This document shows, piece by piece, positions 1 through 36,454 of a stretch of 36,454 bases of DNA. A program made the translations under genes and the position numbers. Numbering within the stretch: the first letter of the stretch is position 1; every line of letters starts with the position of its first letter. Origin of the DNA: a virus (Duplodnaviria > Caudoviricetes); IMG/VR virus record IMGVR_UViG_3300030372_005063, positions 1-36,454 of that record; one strand, written 5' to 3'. The notes beneath the pieces were generated by a model, which saw only the letters and a program-made list of their open reading frames with translations, had not been told where the DNA came from and searched no databases.

Positions 1-2535
1 AATTGCGTTTAAAGCGCGGCGAAAGTTAGCCGCGTCAGCATCAGAAACAACTACCCGCTGCTCCCCGGTCATCGGGTCAATTGCGATTACCGAAGCTTTT
101 TGAGCTGCTGCCTTGGCAAGTTCTACTTTTTTAATTTGGTCGGCAATAATTTGCTGTTTTAGCATTGGGGCATCTTCAAGGGAGCCAAGGTTTTCCTCTA
201 GTCTTGCGGCCAGAACAGAGGGGTCTGAGATTGTTGAAAGCGCCTCTATCTCTTTGACAGTATCCTGCTCTGAGTCACCCGTAAGCTTTGCTCCGATTAG
301 ACCCATCAGTGAGGCCCGCTTAGACACCTTTAGGTCTTTGAACGGCGCTGCAATGTTGCCCATTGTGCGCTTTGTTGCATTAACCGCCCACTGGTCAATC
401 TGCTTATTAATTTCAGACTTCATTCGATGCGCGGTAATTCTTCGCCTAACTGCATCACCGGGGGCGGCTATGTTACGGATGTATCTAGCTGCGAGAGCAC
501 CGGGTAAGCCACCAAAAGCATAACCCCCAACAGTGGCAAACGTTTCTGAAACAAGACCAGGCTGTTTTGATAATCCATCTAATTCTTTTTTTGCTTCTTG
601 GAGGTATTTAAAATTAGACCATTTTTCTTTTAGCTTGCCAGAGCCCGCTACAAGGTTAGGGGCAACGTCGTCTATTTTTAACCCAACGCTTTTTGCTGCA
701 TCCAAGTAAGTGCTAAACGAATTAACGTATTCGTCAAACATTTGAGACTTATTGTACAGACGAGTTTCGTCTGCATGGAGCCCATTTATAAAAGAGTCTA
801 TCTTGTTGCTGTCTGCCATAAACTTGGGCGCACCTTTTGCCGCCGCTTTGTCTTTCTTCATAAATGCGGTGGTAAAATTTTTCTGATGCCCAATTAACTT
901 GCTCCATGCTGCGTTAAGCATGGCCTGACTATTTGCAGCTTCTTCTCCAAAAAAAGCTTTGTTCTGCAAAAACAGTTTTAAATCGTCAAAGCCAGCTAAC
1001 CCACGGTCATATCGAGACTGCTGTACTTTTAACTGATCAATAATTCTGAAGACATCTTGTGCAGAGCCGTCCAAAAGCTTGCCAGTCTGCTGCCCAAGAC
1101 GTGCAGTGTCGTATATCGGAGAGCCTTTCTTAAGGCGCGGCGGCATCATGTTGCTATAGACGTACTCGTCAGGTGTTCTTGCAAAGGCGTCAGGTGAGTC
1201 AGAATAATCCAATCTCCGGATGTCAATTTCAATGTTGCCCTCATCTGTCAGTCGGGCTTTGAATGCTCTGATGGGGTCATCGCTGTAAGTTGCCAGCCTG
1301 CCGTCTACAGCTTCAAACAATTCTTGACGCGATTTTTTTGCGGCATCAATTAGGTTGTTTGCAGCGGTTACCTGTGTAGGGTCACCAAGTCGCGGGATCG
1401 TGTCTTCAACCGATTTAATGTAAGTGTTAATAGTGTCGAATGCGGCATTTATGGTGTCGGCTTCGTTTGGTGGTTTAATCTTTGGCAGAATCACCCTGTA
1501 CTTTTCGTCTGTTACCGCCTTGGTTGTGCCGTGAACGGTATCAAACATATCTCCAACATGGTCGCGAGAAGCAACAGAAAGGTCTTTTCTTGTTTGTTTG
1601 AAGCCAAGGTAATCATCTAAAAAGTTAGGGTCGCGAGTCTTTGACAGCAGTTCGGTATCTAACCCTGTCATCGCTGCCGTGTACTTGTCCTTGAAGTCGG
1701 CTACTTTCTTGGCCAGACCTGTAGGGTATTTTGTCTTAGCTTGGGACTGAAACGCTTTTGCAACTACGGCAGCAGGAGCAGAAAAAGCAGCGGTTAAGCC
1801 ACCGCCCAGGAAGGCCGACGTAGTAATGTCGCCCATAATTTGCTCGGCGGTTTTGTCGGTACGGCCAAGAAGTTCTTCTGAGAAAGTCTCACCCGCACCG
1901 AACAAAGCACCTTCCACGCCACCGGCAGCCGCCATTCCTGGCGCTGCCCGCAGCATTCTGGAGCCCCCCACCGCGCCCTCGACACCAAGAAGCTTGGCAA
2001 CGCCTTTCTCGGCAGCGGCAGCAGACCGTGCAGCAAACCCGGCAGGAGTTTGGGCAATAGCTTTCTTGGCTGCGCCCTTAATCCCGGCCCCTGCTACCGC
2101 AGTGGTTCCCCCTGTAAAAACAGCAGGAAGCAACATCCCGCCAATTTCACCAACGCCACTGAGCACCGAGTTATACTCTTCAATATTTTGAAGCTCTTCG
2201 TCCGAGTATGCACCCATTTTCTCAAGGGCAACATCAGACAGTCCAAACGTTAAGCCTCGGCCAGCAGCAAGCAAAAGAGCCTCTACGTTCTTACCCTCAT
2301 ACTCTGCTTTTTCAACGCGCTCTTGACGGTCAGACGCTAGGTCATAGGTTGCGCCAGCCCTAACAGCCTCGCCAAAGTCTTCACCCAAAACACTGCCATA
2401 GCGACCATCAGACAAAGCTACCTGTACTCGTTCGCCTTTTGCAAAAACAAAATCGCCCGACGCATAGGCTTGTTGGACTTGCGCCTCGGGGACGTCAATC
2501 CACTCCTTTTTACTGACGCTGTACATTTTAGGCAT
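1..2535 (-). CDS. Large internal virion/DNA-ejection-type protein, >845 aa, truncated by window edge (not in ORF track)
   Basis: ATG at 2535 after GAAGGA; reads MPKMYSVSKKEWIDVPEAQ...AAGRGLTFGLSD...; Ala/Gly-rich; same frame still open at 60-1 (QRVVVSDADAANFRRALNAI); position after other ejection-type genes. Confidence 0.75.
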   Translation of the reverse strand, partial: MPKMYSVSKKEWIDVPEAQVQQAYASGDFVFAKGERVQVALSDGRYGSVLGEDFGEAVRAGATYDLASDRQERVEKAEYEGKNVEALLLAAGRGLTFGLSDVALEKMGAYSDEELQNIEEYNSVLSGVGEIGGMLLPAVFTGGTTAVAGAGIKGAAKKAIAQTPAGFAARSAAAAEKGVAKLLGVEGAVGGSRMLRAAPGMAAAGGVEGALFGAGETFSEELLGRTDKTAEQIMGDITTSAFLGGGLTAAFSAPAAVVAKAFQSQAKTKYPTGLAKKVADFKDKYTAAMTGLDTELLSKTRDPNFLDDYLGFKQTRKDLSVASRDHVGDMFDTVHGTTKAVTDEKYRVILPKIKPPNEADTINAAFDTINTYIKSVEDTIPRLGDPTQVTAANNLIDAAKKSRQELFEAVDGRLATYSDDPIRAFKARLTDEGNIEIDIRRLDYSDSPDAFARTPDEYVYSNMMPPRLKKGSPIYDTARLGQQTGKLLDGSAQDVFRIIDQLKVQQSRYDRGLAGFDDLKLFLQNKAFFGEEAANSQAMLNAAWSKLIGHQKNFTTAFMKKDKAAAKGAPKFMADSNKIDSFINGLHADETRLYNKSQMFDEYVNSFSTYLDAAKSVGLKIDDVAPNLVAGSGKLKEKWSNFKYLQEAKKELDGLSKQPGLVSETFATVGGYAFGGLPGALAARYIRNIAAPGDAVRRRITAHRMKSEINKQIDQWAVNATKRTMGNIAAPFKDLKVSKRASLMGLIGAKLTGDSEQDTVKEIEALSTISDPSVLAARLEENLGSLEDAPMLKQQIIADQIKKVELAKAAAQKASVIAIDPMTGEQRVVVSDADAANFRRALNAI

Positions 2536-2953
2536 CGTTTTGTTCCTTCAAATACTTTTCGATATCTACCGGATTACCGTCAATCCACAGCTCTGCGTGC
2601 AGGTGATACCCCGTCCCCCTGCCGGTTTTGCCTACGCCAGCAACGTGGTGCCCGGCTTTTATTTTTTGGTTTTCTTTTACCTTTAAACTCCCAGGCTCAA
2701 GATGCATATACTTAACCTCTCGGCCAAGCTTGTCTTTTATTTTAACAATAAAGCCAGTGTTTCCGCCTTGGTTTCCGGCGTATGTTACTTCTCCGTCAAA
2801 CATTGCTCTAACCGGCGTATTTCTTGGAGCAGCGTAGTCAGTACCTTTGTGTTGGTCTTTTTTTGCTCCTGTTACCGGGTGCGTCCTTTCTCCAAACGGG
2901 GAACTAACTCGAACTTTTTCCCCTACGGGGTGGCTAAGGGCTAGTCTGGACTT
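2528..2953 (-). CDS. M23 family zinc metallopeptidase (peptidoglycan endopeptidase) domain, 141 codons, probably reached by -1 frameshift from 2941..4521
   Basis: Frame reads KSRLALSHPVGEKVRVSSPFGERTHPVTGAKKDQHKGTDYAAPRNTPVRAMFDGEV...YMHL...GRGTGYHLHAEL; HxxxD and HxH zinc motifs; HxxxD lies upstream of the first start codon (2803). Confidence 0.88.
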   Translation of the reverse strand, partial: KSRLALSHPVGEKVRVSSPFGERTHPVTGAKKDQHKGTDYAAPRNTPVRAMFDGEVTYAGNQGGNTGFIVKIKDKLGREVKYMHLEPGSLKVKENQKIKAGHHVAGVGKTGRGTGYHLHAELWIDGNPVDIEKYLKEQNDA

Positions 2954-17435: not shown

Positions 17436-17932
17436 TTTCCATCCTCAAACTTGTCTACCCCGTTAGTCTCTCGTACCTGTGGGACATAGAAAAGATTATA
17501 CCTATCGCGGAGAGATTTATATACATAACCCTTATGGCTACAGACAATCGGCTCCCCCTGACGGTGTTCAAAGTACCTAAGTAGCAAACTTGCGAGCCCT
17601 AAACGCCGAAAAGCATCCTTAACATAGCAGTAATGCACTAAAAGAGGCCCTGTTTTGGTCCTGATTCCGCACATCCACGCAAAAATCTGATTGGGGTCGT
17701 CATCCATCACCGCCATAACGGTAACCGACTTCTCCATAAGGTTTCTTATGATTTTTCGGTGACTTTTATACAGAATGCCCCGGTGCTGGTCTTTGTTTTG
17801 GTCGGCGTAGCTTCGCAGCCAAGTGCTATATACCAAAGAAGCATCAGAAGAGCTTGCAAGGCGAACCAAGACGGGCAGTTTGTCGTTATCGCGTATAGGA
17901 TTGTAGGCAAGGGTCGCATGTGGCGTAGTCAT
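17423..17932 (-). CDS. GNAT-family acetyltransferase-like protein, 169 aa
   Basis: Acetyl-CoA-binding motif A: VHYCYVKDAFRRLGLASLLL; N-terminal VRLASSSD matches GNAT beta1. Confidence 0.75.
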   Translation of the reverse strand: MTTPHATLAYNPIRDNDKLPVLVRLASSSDASLVYSTWLRSYADQNKDQHRGILYKSHRKIIRNLMEKSVTVMAVMDDDPNQIFAWMCGIRTKTGPLLVHYCYVKDAFRRLGLASLLLRYFEHRQGEPIVCSHKGYVYKSLRDRYNLFYVPQVRETNGVDKFEDGKWKL

Positions 17933-31441: not shown

Positions 31442-31864
31442 TCAGCGCGGCCAGTTGTATTTGAACCATCGCGCTGCCTTTGCTTTTTCTGGTGAAGAGC
31501 CACGAGTATCGAAGTGGACGAAGTTCTCGTATAGCCCCAGCCCGAAACCAGTGCCTAATCTGCGAGCTGCGTTCTCAAGTTCGATGTATAATCGCAACAT
31601 ATAAGCACCATGGCGCTTGGTCGCATTAACATAGGTGACATCGGCAGCATAAACCACGCCGTCACGAGGAAGGTGCCAGCTCTTCGATGCACCGCCAACC
31701 GCTTTATTGTGCTGCTCGCACCGGTACGATGAGTTGATTCTTAGTGGGCCAAGCTCTTTGCGTACGCTGTCAAGAACAGTAACGAGCGACTGTGCGGGGT
31801 TTGTTTTACCGCAGCAGTTACACGCAAACTCTGACGCCGAGAAATGTTGACCGACCTTACCCAT
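31442..31864 (-). CDS. Peptidase M15A-family endolysin, 140 aa
   Basis: HFSASEFACNCCG, INSSYRC...HN..VGGASKSWH, AAD, FVHFDTRG. Confidence 0.9.
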   Translation of the reverse strand: MGKVGQHFSASEFACNCCGKTNPAQSLVTVLDSVRKELGPLRINSSYRCEQHNKAVGGASKSWHLPRDGVVYAADVTYVNATKRHGAYMLRLYIELENAARRLGTGFGLGLYENFVHFDTRGSSPEKAKAARWFKYNWPR

Positions 31865-31952
31865 AGTAGCTCATCTTTTTAGGTTTTTTCTTTGGCTTCT
31901 TTTTTTTCGGCATTACTTTTTTCAGCTTTGGCTTCATTGGTTTTTTCATCAT
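31857..31952 (-). CDS. Hidden 31-aa Lys/Pro-rich microprotein overlapping the 229-aa gene
   Basis: MMKKPMKPKLKKVMPKKKKPKKKPKKMSYYG; RBS GAAGGA; stop overlaps endolysin ATG. Confidence 0.6.
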   Translation of the reverse strand: MMKKPMKPKLKKVMPKKKKPKKKPKKMSYYG

Positions 31953-32568
31953 CTGGTTTTCCTTCGTAAAACCACGCATCCGTGTGGCAATAATTAAGTC
32001 CGGTGTTGCTAAAATAAATTTCTTCACATGCTTCGTAATCAGGTGGACCTACTACCTTGGTAAGGCTTGGCTCTGTCCACAAGATACGATTGTTGGGCAT
32101 CGAGCAGAACTGGCCATTGTCGAGCGCCAAGATGTTTTGACTCTTGTGCTCCTTTGGAATGCTAGCACACGTGGGCATTAGCTCACCGCTCGCGTCAACT
32201 TGGTCCACAGTGCAAACGTATGTGCCGCTCACCAGCTCCTTGCCTACCCGCACCTTGGCATCGAGGTGACGCAAAGCATCTTTAACAATTGTCGTAATGT
32301 GCCACGCATCCATGTCCCAAAGTGCAAGCTCACCCTGGTCAAAGCGAAAGTCGCCTTCTTTGTCGTGAACAAATGCCTCAATCGGTAACTTGTCGTAGAG
32401 AGCGCCGTTCTCTAACAGCGTCTCAAAAAGAAGGGCTCGGTGTTTTTGCGTTTTAACGCTTACCCAATAACCTTTGGTAAATTCGCCGTGTCCTTTTTTG
32501 AAATTGTAGAGAAACTCGTTGCGAACGTAGACGGGCTCAAGAGGAAGGTTTGCAACAAGGAAGCTCAT
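31879..32568 (-). CDS. Conserved-looking phage hypothetical protein, 229 aa
   Basis: VANLP...VRNEFLY...GHGEF...GALYDKLPI...PNNRI recalls a family common in aquatic phages; ATGA overlap. Confidence 0.75.
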   Translation of the reverse strand: MSFLVANLPLEPVYVRNEFLYNFKKGHGEFTKGYWVSVKTQKHRALLFETLLENGALYDKLPIEAFVHDKEGDFRFDQGELALWDMDAWHITTIVKDALRHLDAKVRVGKELVSGTYVCTVDQVDASGELMPTCASIPKEHKSQNILALDNGQFCSMPNNRILWTEPSLTKVVGPPDYEACEEIYFSNTGLNYCHTDAWFYEGKPDDEKTNEAKAEKSNAEKKEAKEKT

Positions 32569-32807
32569 CGTTTCTTGCCCTTGTGCAGGCCATGCTTGGC
32601 GTGTTGCTTGCCCTTCTTTGTTGCCGCTCTTTTCTTTTTATTTGCTGCTGCCAACTTTTTACGTCCTGCCGCAGTGCTTTTCAACTTTCTGATAGTTGCT
32701 GCTGGCGCGTAAACCTCGCCCGTCTTGGAAGACTTTTTTCCTGATGCGGTGCGCCATTTTTGACTGGTCCATTCTTTAAGACTCTTCTGCGTTTTTTTTA
32801 GGGCCAT
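32565..32807 (-). CDS. Very basic small protein, 80 aa
   Basis: KSLKEWTSQKWRT...; Lys/Arg-rich; overlap-coupled. Confidence 0.8.
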   Translation of the reverse strand: MALKKTQKSLKEWTSQKWRTASGKKSSKTGEVYAPAATIRKLKSTAAGRKKLAAANKKKRAATKKGKQHAKHGLHKGKKR

Positions 32808-32998
32808 CAGCTTTTGTACCCTCCACCTGCGGCCTTGTACTGCTTGGCTAACATTTGCGCTTTACGTGCAGACCACTGACCGGGTTTTCCGCCCTTACCG
32901 CCTGCCTTAATCTTATTAAACAAACGCTTGCGCATTGTTGGCTTGGTGTAGTTGCCTGCCTCGTTTACGCGACTTTTTGCTTTTTTTCTAACTGCCAT
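32807..32998 (-). CDS. Very basic small protein, 63 aa (recalls DUF5872-like viral proteins)
   Basis: GQWSARKAQMLAKQYKAAGGGYK motif. Confidence 0.8.
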   Translation of the reverse strand: MAVRKKAKSRVNEAGNYTKPTMRKRLFNKIKAGGKGGKPGQWSARKAQMLAKQYKAAGGGYKS

Positions 32999-33002
32999 TT
33001 GC

Positions 33003-33266
33003 TCACCAATTTTTACAAGACCAGTATCTGGCCGTTAGCTTTGACGGGGGATTCGAGTCACACTTATGCCGTGCCCGGAACGATTTCTTGCGAGCTGGCA
33101 CGTTTTTCTTGATTTTCATGTTAGCGTCACCAAAGCGAATCATCTTTGTTTTGTCGCCAACTTTTGCGACAACAACAAACTTCTTTGGTCCGTTTGGCGT
33201 GCGCTTCGGTTTATTGTAGCGCGTAACTCCGGCGCGAACTAATTTTGGGTCTCGTTTCTTTGGCAT
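33003..33266 (-). CDS. Very basic small protein, 87 aa
   Basis: RFGD...RKKSFRARHKCD...ARYWSCKNW motif recurring in aquatic viruses; RBS AGGTGG. Confidence 0.8.
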   Translation of the reverse strand: MPKKRDPKLVRAGVTRYNKPKRTPNGPKKFVVVAKVGDKTKMIRFGDANMKIKKNVPARKKSFRARHKCDSNPPSKLTARYWSCKNW

Positions 33267-33267
33267 A

Positions 33268-33495
33268 TCACCACCTCATTTTTAAACCTGCCGATGCGGT
33301 CCAGTCTCCACTGTTTGCGAAGTCTCCACTAGCAAAGGCAAATATATCTCGGCCTAATGCAAGGTCAATATTACCAGTACCCCGGGCACCATTGCTATCA
33401 GCAACAACACCAAGAGCGAGGCTGATCGTATCTTCCTCCAGGCCCGACGCCCTCTCAATACCTGCCGCCACAACATCCCTTACTTCTCTTGGGAC
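33268..33495 (-). CDS. -1 frame extension (75 aa) of the 77-aa membrane protein; helix plus four beta strands, YadA-anchor-like
   Basis: VPREVRDVVAAGIERASGLEEDTISLALGVV...WTASAGLKMRW; begins exactly at G GGA AAG; fills otherwise empty 33268-33479. Confidence 0.7.
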   Translation of the reverse strand, partial: VPREVRDVVAAGIERASGLEEDTISLALGVVADSNGARGTGNIDLALGRDIFAFASGDFANSGDWTASAGLKMRW

Positions 33496-33713
33496 TTTCC
33501 CAGCGTCTGCACCGCCTCTGCTCCGGTCAAAGCCTTCTTTACCATGCCGCGTGAGTGGTTGTAGCTGGCACCCAACACGGCTGCTGCAACTGGTCCACAG
33601 ATTTTTACCCACTCACTATCTGCAAACACTGCTGCCAGTGCCCCACAAATTAAACCAGCCACAGTAAGTAAAAACTCACTACTCTTGAGGCCGTTAGTCT
33701 TACCCTTAATCAT
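33480..33713 (-). CDS. Small membrane protein, holin-like, 77 aa (148 aa if frameshifted)
   Basis: Two hydrophobic segments FLLTVAGLICGALAAVFA and ICGPVAAAVLGASY; RBS AGGGGG; lysis-region context. Confidence 0.65.
   Translation of the reverse strand: MIKGKTNGLKSSEFLLTVAGLICGALAAVFADSEWVKICGPVAAAVLGASYNHSRGMVKKALTGAEAVQTLGKSQEK
33495..33501 (-). other. -1 slippery heptamer G GGA AAG
   Basis: In-frame CTG GGA AAG, four sense codons before the stop; identical to lambda G/GT shift site. Confidence 0.75.
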
Positions 33714-34083
33714 TTCTTTCCCCCCTTTCAGCTAAAGCTCTGGCCATGCCGCGCTCTTCAGCTTCTTTGATTCGAGACTCTTCAATAATCTTAAACACGT
33801 TAGCACCCGTCTCAGTGCTTACTCTGTTGATGTTGTCCGTCAGAGTTTCAATGCGAGTGGACTTCTCATGCACGCCATCAATCTTGTCGTTGATTCGCTC
33901 AAGCGTCTGAGTTGTGCTCGCCATACACTCAACCATCTGCCCCATATTGCTATTCAGCTCACCCTGGTTAAGGTCAATCTGCACAGGCTTAGGACCACCG
34001 TTATTGAGCTTCTTATCGACAAGCTTTTCAATGACTTTGATTAAAGCCATCATTGTGCCGAAGAGCGCACCGGCTTCAATCAT
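33706..34083 (-). CDS. Membrane-anchored coiled-coil protein, possible lysis accessory, ~125 aa
   Basis: Start probably ATG 34083; hydrophobic N-terminus then heptad-like region. Confidence 0.55.
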   Translation of the reverse strand: MIEAGALFGTMMALIKVIEKLVDKKLNNGGPKPVQIDLNQGELNSNMGQMVECMASTTQTLERINDKIDGVHEKSTRIETLTDNINRVSTETGANVFKIIEESRIKEAEERGMARALAERGERND

Positions 34084-34096
34084 GCCGCTTTCCACG

Positions 34097-36454
34097 TCAA
34101 TCACCACCCTCAAGTTGCTCGATGCGGGCGGTAAGCTCCTGGACGGCTTTGATCAAAGGCACTACAAGCGTTGCATACTGGATGCCCATCTTGCCACTTG
34201 CTGCCTCATCGATGCCGTTAAAAGCTACGCCCAAAGATTCGACAGCAGCTTTGACCTCTTGAGCAATCAACCCATCGACACGGCTGGTGCTATCAAACTC
34301 ATCCTTAATAGCCTGCTGGGTATCAACATCAAAAGTTGCAGTCGAAACGGTCAACTCTTCTGTCCTTGTAAGATTACCCTCTTCGTCAAAAATATCTTGA
34401 GTTGTATTTCGTCCTACCTTGTACCGCTTTTCCCGAATCTCTTCAGGCCACTCAGCCGGGTGCTTTCTTGTAAAGCTGACAGGACGAAGAGCGTTGATAA
34501 ATTCTAAGCCTGCGTCGGCATCTTGAATGTTTTCCTTAATGCGTTCATCAGAATCTACGGTCCAGTCAACCTGAATATTGCAGGTTGCAATTGATGAGTT
34601 GCCAAGACGGATTTTATTGGGTCCATCAGTTACAGAACCATGACCAATTGCAATTTGGTTGTTGCCGTCAGTGTCAGTGGTGTCAGCTTCAGATCCTAAG
34701 AACAAGTTTTGCTGCCCAGTATCAAGGCCCAATCCTGCCCGATATCCGAAAGCTGAGTTTGACTCTAAAGCGCCGCCAGTCAATCCGGTTAAGCACTGGT
34801 AACCGACAGCGGTTGAATAAATTGAACTTGAAGCGTCAAGCGCTTCTTTTCCGATTGCAATCGAATCAGAACCAGTAAACGCAGACATAGCTGAGTGACC
34901 AATAGCTACATTGTTGGTTCCTGAGCAGGTCGCAGAAAATGAGCCTTTTCCGATAACGGTATTGGATGCACCTGTAGCGGCAGTTCCGGTACTGTGGCCG
35001 ATGTAAACACAATCGTCGCCCGATTTTCTTCCGCAGTTTGTTCCGATTGCGACTGAGTTTTGCGTAGAAGTGGCGTCATCAAGTGCGTAGGTGCCAATAG
35101 CAACATTGCGCTGCGCGTTTGTTATATCAAAACCAGAACCAAAGCCAATGATTACATTGTTTGCCGCGCTTGAAAGTGCCCAGTTGCCGGAGCCTCTTTG
35201 CGCAATAATGGTGTTTAAAACACCGTCTTCTTCAATTGCATCAAGAATACCCGCGTCCCCAATGGCGATGTTTCCTGCTGAGCCTTGAACGCCAGACGAT
35301 GAGCTTAGAGTTAAAACCCCGGTAGAGTTTACAGCCATGACCGATTTGCTATCCCCAGTCTTAACCGCAAAAAGTTCGCCGCCATCTGTTGTGCCACTTT
35401 TGCCGCTTCCAGTTGAGCCGGTAAAGTTTGAATCTAAGGTTAATGCTGTATCGCTTGCAATTGCAGCAACGGTATAGGTTCCCTCGCTGCCAATTTTAAT
35501 GGCCGAACCCACGTGCAACTGGGTTGTAAATACTGTGGAGCTACCGCTAGAGATTGCCGTGTCTCCGTTCGTTGCCGTAAATGTGCCGGTTAGTGCTGTA
35601 TCAATGTGGCCAACTGTTTCGACTTCAGCTGTTGCAGAGCAAGTGCCGAAACCGACGTTGCCCGTTGAACTGTCGATGCACTGTCTAACGGCGCTACCTG
35701 CTTGAACCCTGAAGTCTACGTTGCTGTTTAAAGTTGTGTTTGCGCCGGATGCCTCAACGGTAAGCACGCCCGAATCACGCTGGAAAGATGCTTGGGCAGC
35801 TACGCTGTCATTCCTTACATGCAGCGAGTTTGGACTCGTAATGTCGGCCAGATCTGTTCCAATTTTTAGGCAACCGGTATCCGTCAAAGTCATTGCTTTG
35901 ACCGGGGGTTCTGCCGCTGTGCTTTGTTTTGTATAGAAGCTTAGTTCACCCTTACCGCCTCCGCCCGTGTCTTTGTGAACAAGCGCAGAACCGCCGTAAG
36001 TATCGCTTGAGCTTGAAAGCAAAAACGCGGTTTCGTCATTGTCGTTAGATGAGCCTTGGAGAACTAAAGCATAGTTGTCAAAATCACCAAGGTCATCAGG
36101 TGTGCCTGATGTGTCGGCGGTGATAACGGTGCGGCCCTTAGCTTCAATATCTGTAGGCCCAATTACTAACATATCACTGCCAGCAGTTTTAAAAGCGATA
36201 GTGTTAGCCGTTTTAAGGCGCATCATTGTGTCAGTATCGTCAATGAAGCCCATCTCGCTACAAATTTGAAGCTCTGGCAGAGAGCCATCAACTTCACGAA
36301 TGATTAGCCCCGCGTTTTCAATTGCGCCGCCATCGCCCGCACCTACACCCAGCTCTAGCTGCTCGGCGTTGTCGGTGGTCGTTATTTTCATAAACTGCTC
36401 ACCCGCAGTGTCCTGAATTACGAGAGCCGTAGCGTTGTTGTCTGGAATTACATT
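34097..36454 (-). CDS. Tail fibre/spike with C-terminal intramolecular chaperone (peptidase S74), 5' truncated
   Basis: SDERIKENI...LRPVSF...GLIAQEV...YATLVVPLIKAVQEL; NxAIG repeats; frame open to window end. Confidence 0.9.
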   Translation of the reverse strand, partial: NVIPDNNATALVIQDTAGEQFMKITTTDNAEQLELGVGAGDGGAIENAGLIIREVDGSLPELQICSEMGFIDDTDTMMRLKTANTIAFKTAGSDMLVIGPTDIEAKGRTVITADTSGTPDDLGDFDNYALVLQGSSNDNDETAFLLSSSSDTYGGSALVHKDTGGGGKGELSFYTKQSTAAEPPVKAMTLTDTGCLKIGTDLADITSPNSLHVRNDSVAAQASFQRDSGVLTVEASGANTTLNSNVDFRVQAGSAVRQCIDSSTGNVGFGTCSATAEVETVGHIDTALTGTFTATNGDTAISSGSSTVFTTQLHVGSAIKIGSEGTYTVAAIASDTALTLDSNFTGSTGSGKSGTTDGGELFAVKTGDSKSVMAVNSTGVLTLSSSSGVQGSAGNIAIGDAGILDAIEEDGVLNTIIAQRGSGNWALSSAANNVIIGFGSGFDITNAQRNVAIGTYALDDATSTQNSVAIGTNCGRKSGDDCVYIGHSTGTAATGASNTVIGKGSFSATCSGTNNVAIGHSAMSAFTGSDSIAIGKEALDASSSIYSTAVGYQCLTGLTGGALESNSAFGYRAGLGLDTGQQNLFLGSEADTTDTDGNNQIAIGHGSVTDGPNKIRLGNSSIATCNIQVDWTVDSDERIKENIQDADAGLEFINALRPVSFTRKHPAEWPEEIREKRYKVGRNTTQDIFDEEGNLTRTEELTVSTATFDVDTQQAIKDEFDSTSRVDGLIAQEVKAAVESLGVAFNGIDEAASGKMGIQYATLVVPLIKAVQELTARIEQLEGGD

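Follow-up and report, generated by a model that had tools for sequence, protein, structure and literature searches.

A candidate frameshift fusion of a holin-like protein to a predicted outer-membrane anchor in the lysis region of a marine phage

Can a ribosomal frameshift turn a small holin-like protein into a device that reaches the outer membrane? The question is raised by three reading frames (A, B and C) that overlap within 450 nt of a phage lysis region. The window analysed here is the whole stretch of DNA, 36,454 nt long and a whole virus record from marine metagenomes; contigs of runs X1 and X2, possibly the source of the DNA, cover the stretch with 0 differences and 0 indels. Its genes include terminase, portal, major head, primase, SSB, tail fibre and an M15 endolysin. 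The order on the minus strand is tail fibre, a 135-aa gene with a hydrophobic stretch and a coiled coil, A (77 aa), B, three small basic genes, a 229-aa gene and the M15 endolysin, and a gene built like the coiled-coil one precedes A in most relatives. The features are as follows, with TAA anchor standing for the membrane anchor of trimeric autotransporters.

34097..36454, minus strand: tail fibre or spike with an S74 chaperone domain, from profile matches (context)
33706..34113, minus strand: upstream gene, a weak N-terminal hydrophobic stretch and then a coiled coil; likely start GTG 34095
33480..33713, minus strand: gene A, two-helix holin-like membrane protein, 77 aa (ORF, 221 homologues, helix build)
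33515..33518, minus strand: Shine-Dalgarno-like GAGG, 13 nt 5' of the shift site, likely stimulator (duplex -8.8 kcal/mol)
33495..33501, minus strand: slippery heptamer G_GGA_AAG, in frame with A (motif; XXXYYY form kept in 73/74 loci)
33268..33495, minus strand: ORF B, -1 frame, 75 codons, TAA-anchor-like (AlphaFold, Foldseek, column statistics)
33469..33471, minus strand: GTG start used by gene callers for a 67-aa B; not kept in the family
33354..33476, minus strand: ORF C, cationic, 40 aa, one hydrophobic helix, nested in B (A's frame, +1 relative to B; begins one codon past A's stop)
31442..31864, minus strand: Peptidase M15 endolysin (PF08291, E 3e-15; phrog_894 endolysin, E 3e-28)

ORF A (33713-33480, minus) ends CTG GGA AAG TCC CAA GAG AAG TAA, and the -1 frame runs on for 75 codons to a TGA at 33270-33268, 1 nt short of an ATG at 33266. 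A shift at the heptamer would yield an A+B fusion of 148 aa, and family fusions span 144-158 aa. An earlier note on this DNA, written from the letters, had placed the end of A, the in-frame G_GGA_AAG, the GAGG 13 nt upstream and the 75-codon frame where we find them, and had proposed a programmed -1 frameshift, with conservation of the heptamer and the offset among its checks. Both are conserved. A first pass over 100 sequences (99 loci and the window) gave 80 with both A and B, 54 of them distinct, the rest being 17 with B but no A match and 3 with A but no B match; all 54 distinct A+B loci show the -1 offset and an X_XXA_AAG heptamer. Two further scans brought the total to 140 loci, 138 with B, from which 21 truncated loci were left out and 76 distinct ones kept. 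A recognised upstream partner is present in 74 of the 76, the window counted in; of the other two, L135 has its upstream part cut off and L140 has a different upstream protein, which also overlaps B in -1, at an A_AAC_CCU read by eye.

B sits in the -1 frame of its upstream partner in 74/74 distinct loci, and the in-frame XXXYYY heptamer takes the form G_GGA_AAG in 37, A_AAA_AAG in 34, and G_GGA_AAC and C_CCA_AAG in one each, the exception (L099) having an imperfect site. Among 256 other ORF ends, none has X_XXA_AAG within the last 12 codons (0/256), so the heptamer at the end of A is not a product of chance. On a B tree of 26 representatives the heptamer type switches 7 times by parsimony, and well-supported branches force at least 2 switches. 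The variants found here are those listed as shift-prone in the available text of a frameshift review (PMC5009743). Judged by this conservation, a programmed -1 frameshift at the end of A is almost certain.

The contrary reading takes the heptamer as incidental and B as either an artefact or a small gene that starts independently, and it draws on the window itself. The GTG at 33471 has a TAAGG 6 nt upstream (-5.2 kcal/mol), gene callers start P0001 (67 aa) there, and databases list B proteins as 63-71 aa. The claim that B has no convincing start of its own therefore needs amending for the window, but it holds for the family, across which no start codon for B is conserved: alternative starts in relatives differ in position and mostly have weak Shine-Dalgarno sequences, and the B frames of L062 and L071 contain no start codon at all. 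Further, reading back from the heptamer, the -1 frame meets a stop within 5 codons in 9/26 clusters. A stand-alone product would also be without a signal peptide. With the heptamer counts set against the control ends, we regard an independent B as extremely improbable. No longer in-frame A+B fusions were found in a search that was weak, its candidates being crowded. One 131-aa protein, P0018, joins helix 1 of A to the B frame without helix 2; it is possibly an assembly error, and we set it aside as evidence because it is one sequence on one contig.

Two kinds of likely stimulator appear in turn. GAGG stands 13 nt 5' of the heptamer in 28/54 distinct loci. By cluster, it is found in 15/26, only 1/15 of which also has a hairpin of -10 kcal/mol or stronger, and such a hairpin lies 4-6 nt downstream of the heptamer in 10/11 clusters without GAGG; L087 is the sole cluster of the 26 with neither. 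The Fisher p of 2e-5 for this alternation overstates it, because the clusters are related. In one clade of A_AAA_AAG sequences (14 chosen, 13 distinct) 93.8% of hairpin cells are paired, with two-sided changes at only one pair. A 5' Shine-Dalgarno and a 3' hairpin are thus likely, from the sequence pattern, to alternate as stimulators; in the window the 5' GAGG is present and no qualifying 3' hairpin was found. Folding over 70 nt is unremarkable family-wide (mean z -0.65; 4/26 below -2). The GUCCC/GGGAU stem that had been put forward as the stimulator drops out: no spacer (0 nt) separates it from the heptamer, and its folding does not beat that of shuffled sequences (z = 0.12). A second GGGAAAG at 33716-33722 (minus strand), in A's ribosome-binding region, is not conserved in the relatives viewed.

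The spacing of the 5' Shine-Dalgarno resembles that of dnaX, and either stimulator, 5' Shine-Dalgarno or 3' hairpin, is dnaX-like. The lambda-type G/GT site and E. coli dnaX, as presented in the accessible part of PMC5009743, share the same heptamers near a gene end and the short major and long minor product. What differs here is that the shifted gene is a membrane or lysis gene; the words 'holin' and 'spanin' occur 0 times in that part of the review (300,000 characters).

The reading of the locus as a lysis device agrees with its lysis-cassette context, but as first set out it overlooked the nested ORF C (33476-33354). In 53/54 distinct loci C has an ATG or GTG one codon past A's stop, in A's frame, often preceded by AGGA or GGAG; the window's Shine-Dalgarno for C is weak (-2.9 kcal/mol). 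In the columns that encode C's hydrophobic helix, B is rich in T at third codon positions (mostly 0.5-0.85, where 0.3-0.45 is expected); past them it is T-poor. Resampling of B's synonymous codons reaches C's hydrophobicity at p < 0.02 in 25/26 clusters, against 5/90 tiles from window genes as a control. These codon patterns make it highly probable that C is a real gene. Family members have 36-66 aa, are basic, and have one helix, little periplasmic domain and no conserved Cys; the window's C has 7 K/R and no D/E.

C is missing in L099 and closed after 3 codons in L087, and because these two loci do without it we consider it likely to be accessory. It is likely a holin co-factor or a cationic membrane peptide. 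By size, it can be likened to two small cationic or single-TM accessory lysis proteins as described in the available text of their reports, the cationic, 56-aa disruptin gp28 of phiKT (10.1101/515445) and Lcc6 of LambdaSo (10.1101/2024.01.23.576932); gp28 is amphipathic, whereas C, which lies inside a frameshift extension, has a full hydrophobic TM-like helix. Of the A+B clusters, only L087 (3256-3588) breaks off C at 3 codons, and 1.7 kb downstream of its locus lies a lipoprotein-like ORF.

Gene A has the traits of a holin: it is small, lies beside an endolysin, and has two hydrophobic helices, of which helix 1 is strong and helix 2 marginal and Gly/Ala-rich, a short acidic loop, and a basic N-terminus and tail. 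There is no significant match to any holin family in Pfam or PHROGs, only weak leads (scores 0.81-0.82; relatives reach phrog_1129 at E 0.084 and PF23987 at E 0.024). A is likely a holin, an identity that rests on build and position and not on a family match. Two relatives of A have no B (L097:3989-4204 and L098:3995-4192, both outside the lipobox scan), and the A of L098 lies right after an M15 endolysin. L031 (3639-4069) has B, C and a slip site on a two-helix protein of the KSRKLW type, unrelated to A and weakly matching a holin (E 0.017); there the slip site is G_GGA_AAC, B has little helix and C has 54 aa. The module can move between holin-like families. L099 (3986-4390) has a distant A, an imperfect G_GAA_AAG and a short B (50 codons past A's stop), and then an amidase.

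Topology is the difficulty for any device that must reach the outer membrane. On a summed, position-independent insertion scale, helix 1 scores -2.2 to +1.1 and helix 2 +1.8 to +8.7, and in the 19 representatives tabulated (of 26) helix 2 is followed by three K/R. Under the positive-inside rule an acidic loop and a basic tail indicate N-in/C-in; this is therefore the predicted topology, with B cytoplasmic at first. The charge pattern suggests that the B tail is made in the cytoplasm, which bears out a caveat of the earlier note. The rescue offered there, signal cleavage at VFA/DSE, looks weak: the loop with the putative cleavage site varies among relatives (ASIEGNQ, LEQSQGDNQW, MGSGVFGDSE), the three K/R follow helix 2, and conserved signal cleavage in A is not evident by eye and hydrophobicity. 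Given the predicted C-in topology, the fusion proposed below would require either a mixed topology or a way through holin lesions.

What the shift would add is a predicted membrane anchor. AlphaFold models the B monomer as a helix (3-17) and four amphipathic strands, with 1/5 models confident from a 19-row alignment (pLDDT 86) and 5/5 at pLDDT 70-89 from a 38-row alignment. For both B models the top five Foldseek matches in the PDB are the Hia (three entries), YadA and AtaA anchors, all weak in absolute terms (E 2e-3 to 4e-2, TM about 0.5, rmsd 5-10 Å); weaker matches include soluble helix-over-sheet proteins, for example thioesterases and methyltransferases. Named top matches in a viral structure library are mostly phage YadA-type proteins, some of just 90-122 aa. 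These predictions support the TAA-anchor-like layout of a helix and four strands that had been read from the letters, but a YadA_anchor profile match failed to appear, B having no match to Pfam PF03895. VIA-align places B against TAA anchors at Z 5.4-6.6, below its noise guide of 8 and tied with complement, MACPF, gasdermin and CdiB sheets; the oligomeric beta-pores C5b8, GSDME and RCD-1 score Z 5.9-6.7. For A, B and C of the window, Pfam and PHROGs gave no family match beyond weak rows and a PDB sequence search no credible match. Atlas look-alikes of B, leads only, are PF24653 Phage_OMP (0.92) and a cluster that is 13% PF03797 (0.91).

The columns of the B alignment point the same way. Beta-signals follow the pattern G-x-x-hydrophobic-x-aromatic, and the window's B ends G-L-K-M-R-W; the last residue is W or F in 53/53 complete loci, and the Gly at -6 is invariant. 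Hydrophobic and polar faces alternate, W65 and G70 are invariant, F54 is kept in 34/38, there is an aromatic girdle, and conservation in B peaks in the last strand. In 28/53 loci the terminal AGG TGG also serves as the Shine-Dalgarno of the following gene, and the terminal aromatic is kept also where the codons have no such second role. The small-residue helix is kept in most loci and reduced or missing in L031 and L099. In a deduced register F54 would stand opposite G70, as in the Gly/aromatic mortise-tenon pair described for such barrels in the accessible part of PMC5542473. We consider it probable that B is an outer-membrane-type barrel whose tail trimerises to a 12-stranded TAA-type barrel, the trimer being extrapolated from the monomer fold. 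By prediction, B resembles a TAA anchor, short of established membership.

The neighbourhood is that of a lysis cassette. An endolysin-like gene lies <100 nt from B in 37/74 loci (18 M15, 10 phrog_33083-like and 9 amidase), and an endolysin is found within 2.5 kb of B in 47/48 loci that are long enough; the three families that follow the module are unrelated and exchangeable. As the earlier note had stated for the window, no lipoprotein o-spanin is evident: a custom regex, applied across loci to the plus strand, found no lipobox gene near the module. Beyond GG/C patterns in A, the scan gave two distant candidates; the GG/C patterns (18/74 loci, the window not among them) were rejected because they lie mid-helix. 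A short ORF at 17919 (minus strand) in the window, near the terminase genes, is weakly lipobox-like and probably spurious. In the available text of Kongari 2018 (PMC6139136), the surveyed phages that infect Gram-negative hosts include about 13% without a recognisable spanin, and section 15 offers, as a suggestion only, that an outer-membrane protein could act as an o-spanin.

We propose that most ribosomes stop at A and make the 77-aa holin, and that a minority slip and make the 148-aa holin-barrel fusion. The tail would reach the periplasm when the marginal helix 2 fails to stop transfer or, by an alternative route, would pass holin lesions after triggering, in which case timing would be automatic; this is the weakest step on either route. 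BAM would then insert the barrel via its C-terminal beta-signal while the N-terminus is still anchored in the inner membrane. BAM works without known external energy, according to the accessible part of 10.1101/2021.08.24.457559, so insertion after depolarisation is conceivable. Once the endolysin has removed the wall, the helix and linker folding through the barrel could pull the two membranes together until they rupture or fuse; we suggest such a winch because TAA helices traverse the barrel pore and, in the available text of PMC5670179, may form a hairpin in translocation. C would be made by re-initiation after A's stop, as an accessory.

We put at roughly 50% the probability that the fusion breaches the outer membrane by this tethered route, as a lipoprotein-free, single-chain spanin analogue suggested by sequence and prediction. 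A role in outer-membrane disruption by any route is moderately probable. That the locus represents a fourth class of phage outer-membrane disruption, a frameshift-dosed holin-autotransporter chimera with BAM and autotransport folding as its winch, holin timing and a nested cationic peptide, we advance more tentatively.

Against the spanin-like reading stand the charges that leave the tail on the wrong side, the weak fold scores, the missing YadA_anchor and holin family matches, the second use of the terminal AGG TGG and the relatives of A without B. Moreover, YadA-anchor proteins appear to occur in T4-type and other phages, and a phage barrel therefore need not serve lysis. The fusion could be a non-lytic, frameshifted mini-autotransporter, with helix 1 as signal or anchor and a surface passenger or receptor masking as its role (superinfection exclusion, aggregation). 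The fold of B, the phage-encoded YadA-anchor proteins of as few as 90-122 aa and the marginal helix 2 would all suit it, as would the statement, in the accessible part of PMC5670179, that the last 80 or so residues are enough for a TAA trimer to fold and localise. The cleavage site is not conserved, however, and the module belongs to a late operon, next to endolysins of three interchangeable families. The window proteins that were scanned showed no integrase, so nothing points to a lysogenic stage. We judge this reading unlikely.

Likewise unlikely is a scheme with no membrane fusion, in which the barrel would weaken the outer membrane either by forming an open or larger oligomeric pore or by jamming BAM as a beta-signal decoy, and C would add disruptin-like cationic damage. 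The VIA ties with C5b8, GSDME and RCD-1, the conservation of the last strand, the reduced or missing helix in L031 and L099, and a window C with the cationic character of gp28 (10.1101/515445, available text) are consistent with it. A small-residue helix kept in most loci is what a plugged TAA lumen would lead one to expect, and C, with a full hydrophobic helix unlike the amphipathic gp28, is missing in L087 and L099. If the fusion instead stayed in the inner membrane or cytoplasm, B could be a module for oligomerisation or antiholin action by which the timing of the holin is tuned; the predicted C-in topology and the thioesterase and methyltransferase matches would fit. The terminal aromatic, the Gly at -6, the aromatic girdle and the alternating polarity are outer-membrane traits, and these, with the Phage_OMP and PF03797 atlas leads, make a cytoplasmic B quite improbable.

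How does the proposed single-chain spanin analogue compare with known systems? It shares its position in the lysis cassette with the spanins lambda Rz/Rz1 and T1 gp11. In the accessible part of PMC6139136, the embedded lambda Rz/Rz1 pair likewise has a nested +1-frame gene, and the u-spanin T1 gp11 is likewise one chain with predicted inner- and outer-membrane anchors. The polarity is opposite to that of gp11, the inner-membrane anchor here being N-terminal and the outer-membrane anchor C-terminal; in contrast to Rz/Rz1, the nested gene here encodes an inner-membrane-type peptide and not the outer-membrane part; and there is no lipoprotein, the lipobox Cys being absent. With type Vc autotransporters (Hia, YadA, AtaA, UpaG) and phage YadA-anchor proteins, the tail shares the predicted helix and four strands and the C-terminal aromatic. 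The differences are an identity of 11-19%, the lack of a Pfam match, of a conserved signal peptide and of a head or stalk passenger, and a two-helix membrane protein on the N-terminal side, to which the frameshift joins the tail. The arrangement is thus neither a spanin by the lipoprotein definition nor a TAA by Pfam membership.

No description of the arrangement was found in the literature, as covered by titles, the starts of abstracts and few subscription papers. Its novelty lies in an arrangement of parts of known kinds, for which we infer the function. The locus is a small (450 nt), concrete candidate for an outer-membrane protein acting as outer anchor. If the proposal is true, programmed frameshifting extends from tail and capsid genes to lysis, phages without lipoprotein spanins have a new way to break the outer membrane, and a minimal membrane-tethered autotransporter becomes available for the study of BAM. 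In annotations the system is hard to see, since gene callers shorten B and mostly overlook C.

The window module had no match among 50,697 GenBank phages or in GTDB genome contigs, and so the host was not found. Searches with SSB and terminase gave distant matches only; the best SSB among the matches listed, from Geoalkalibacter at 52%, is too weak to name a host. Around the module, a run of tiny Lys/Arg-rich genes 3' of B (32565-33266, minus strand) varies freely in set and order among relatives, and the 229-aa gene just before the endolysin (31879-32568, minus strand) matches phrog_3704 (label ferredoxin, E 2e-56). The virion module contains a 91-aa metallo-endopeptidase or endolysin-like gene (2528-2803, minus strand), possibly a second wall hydrolase.
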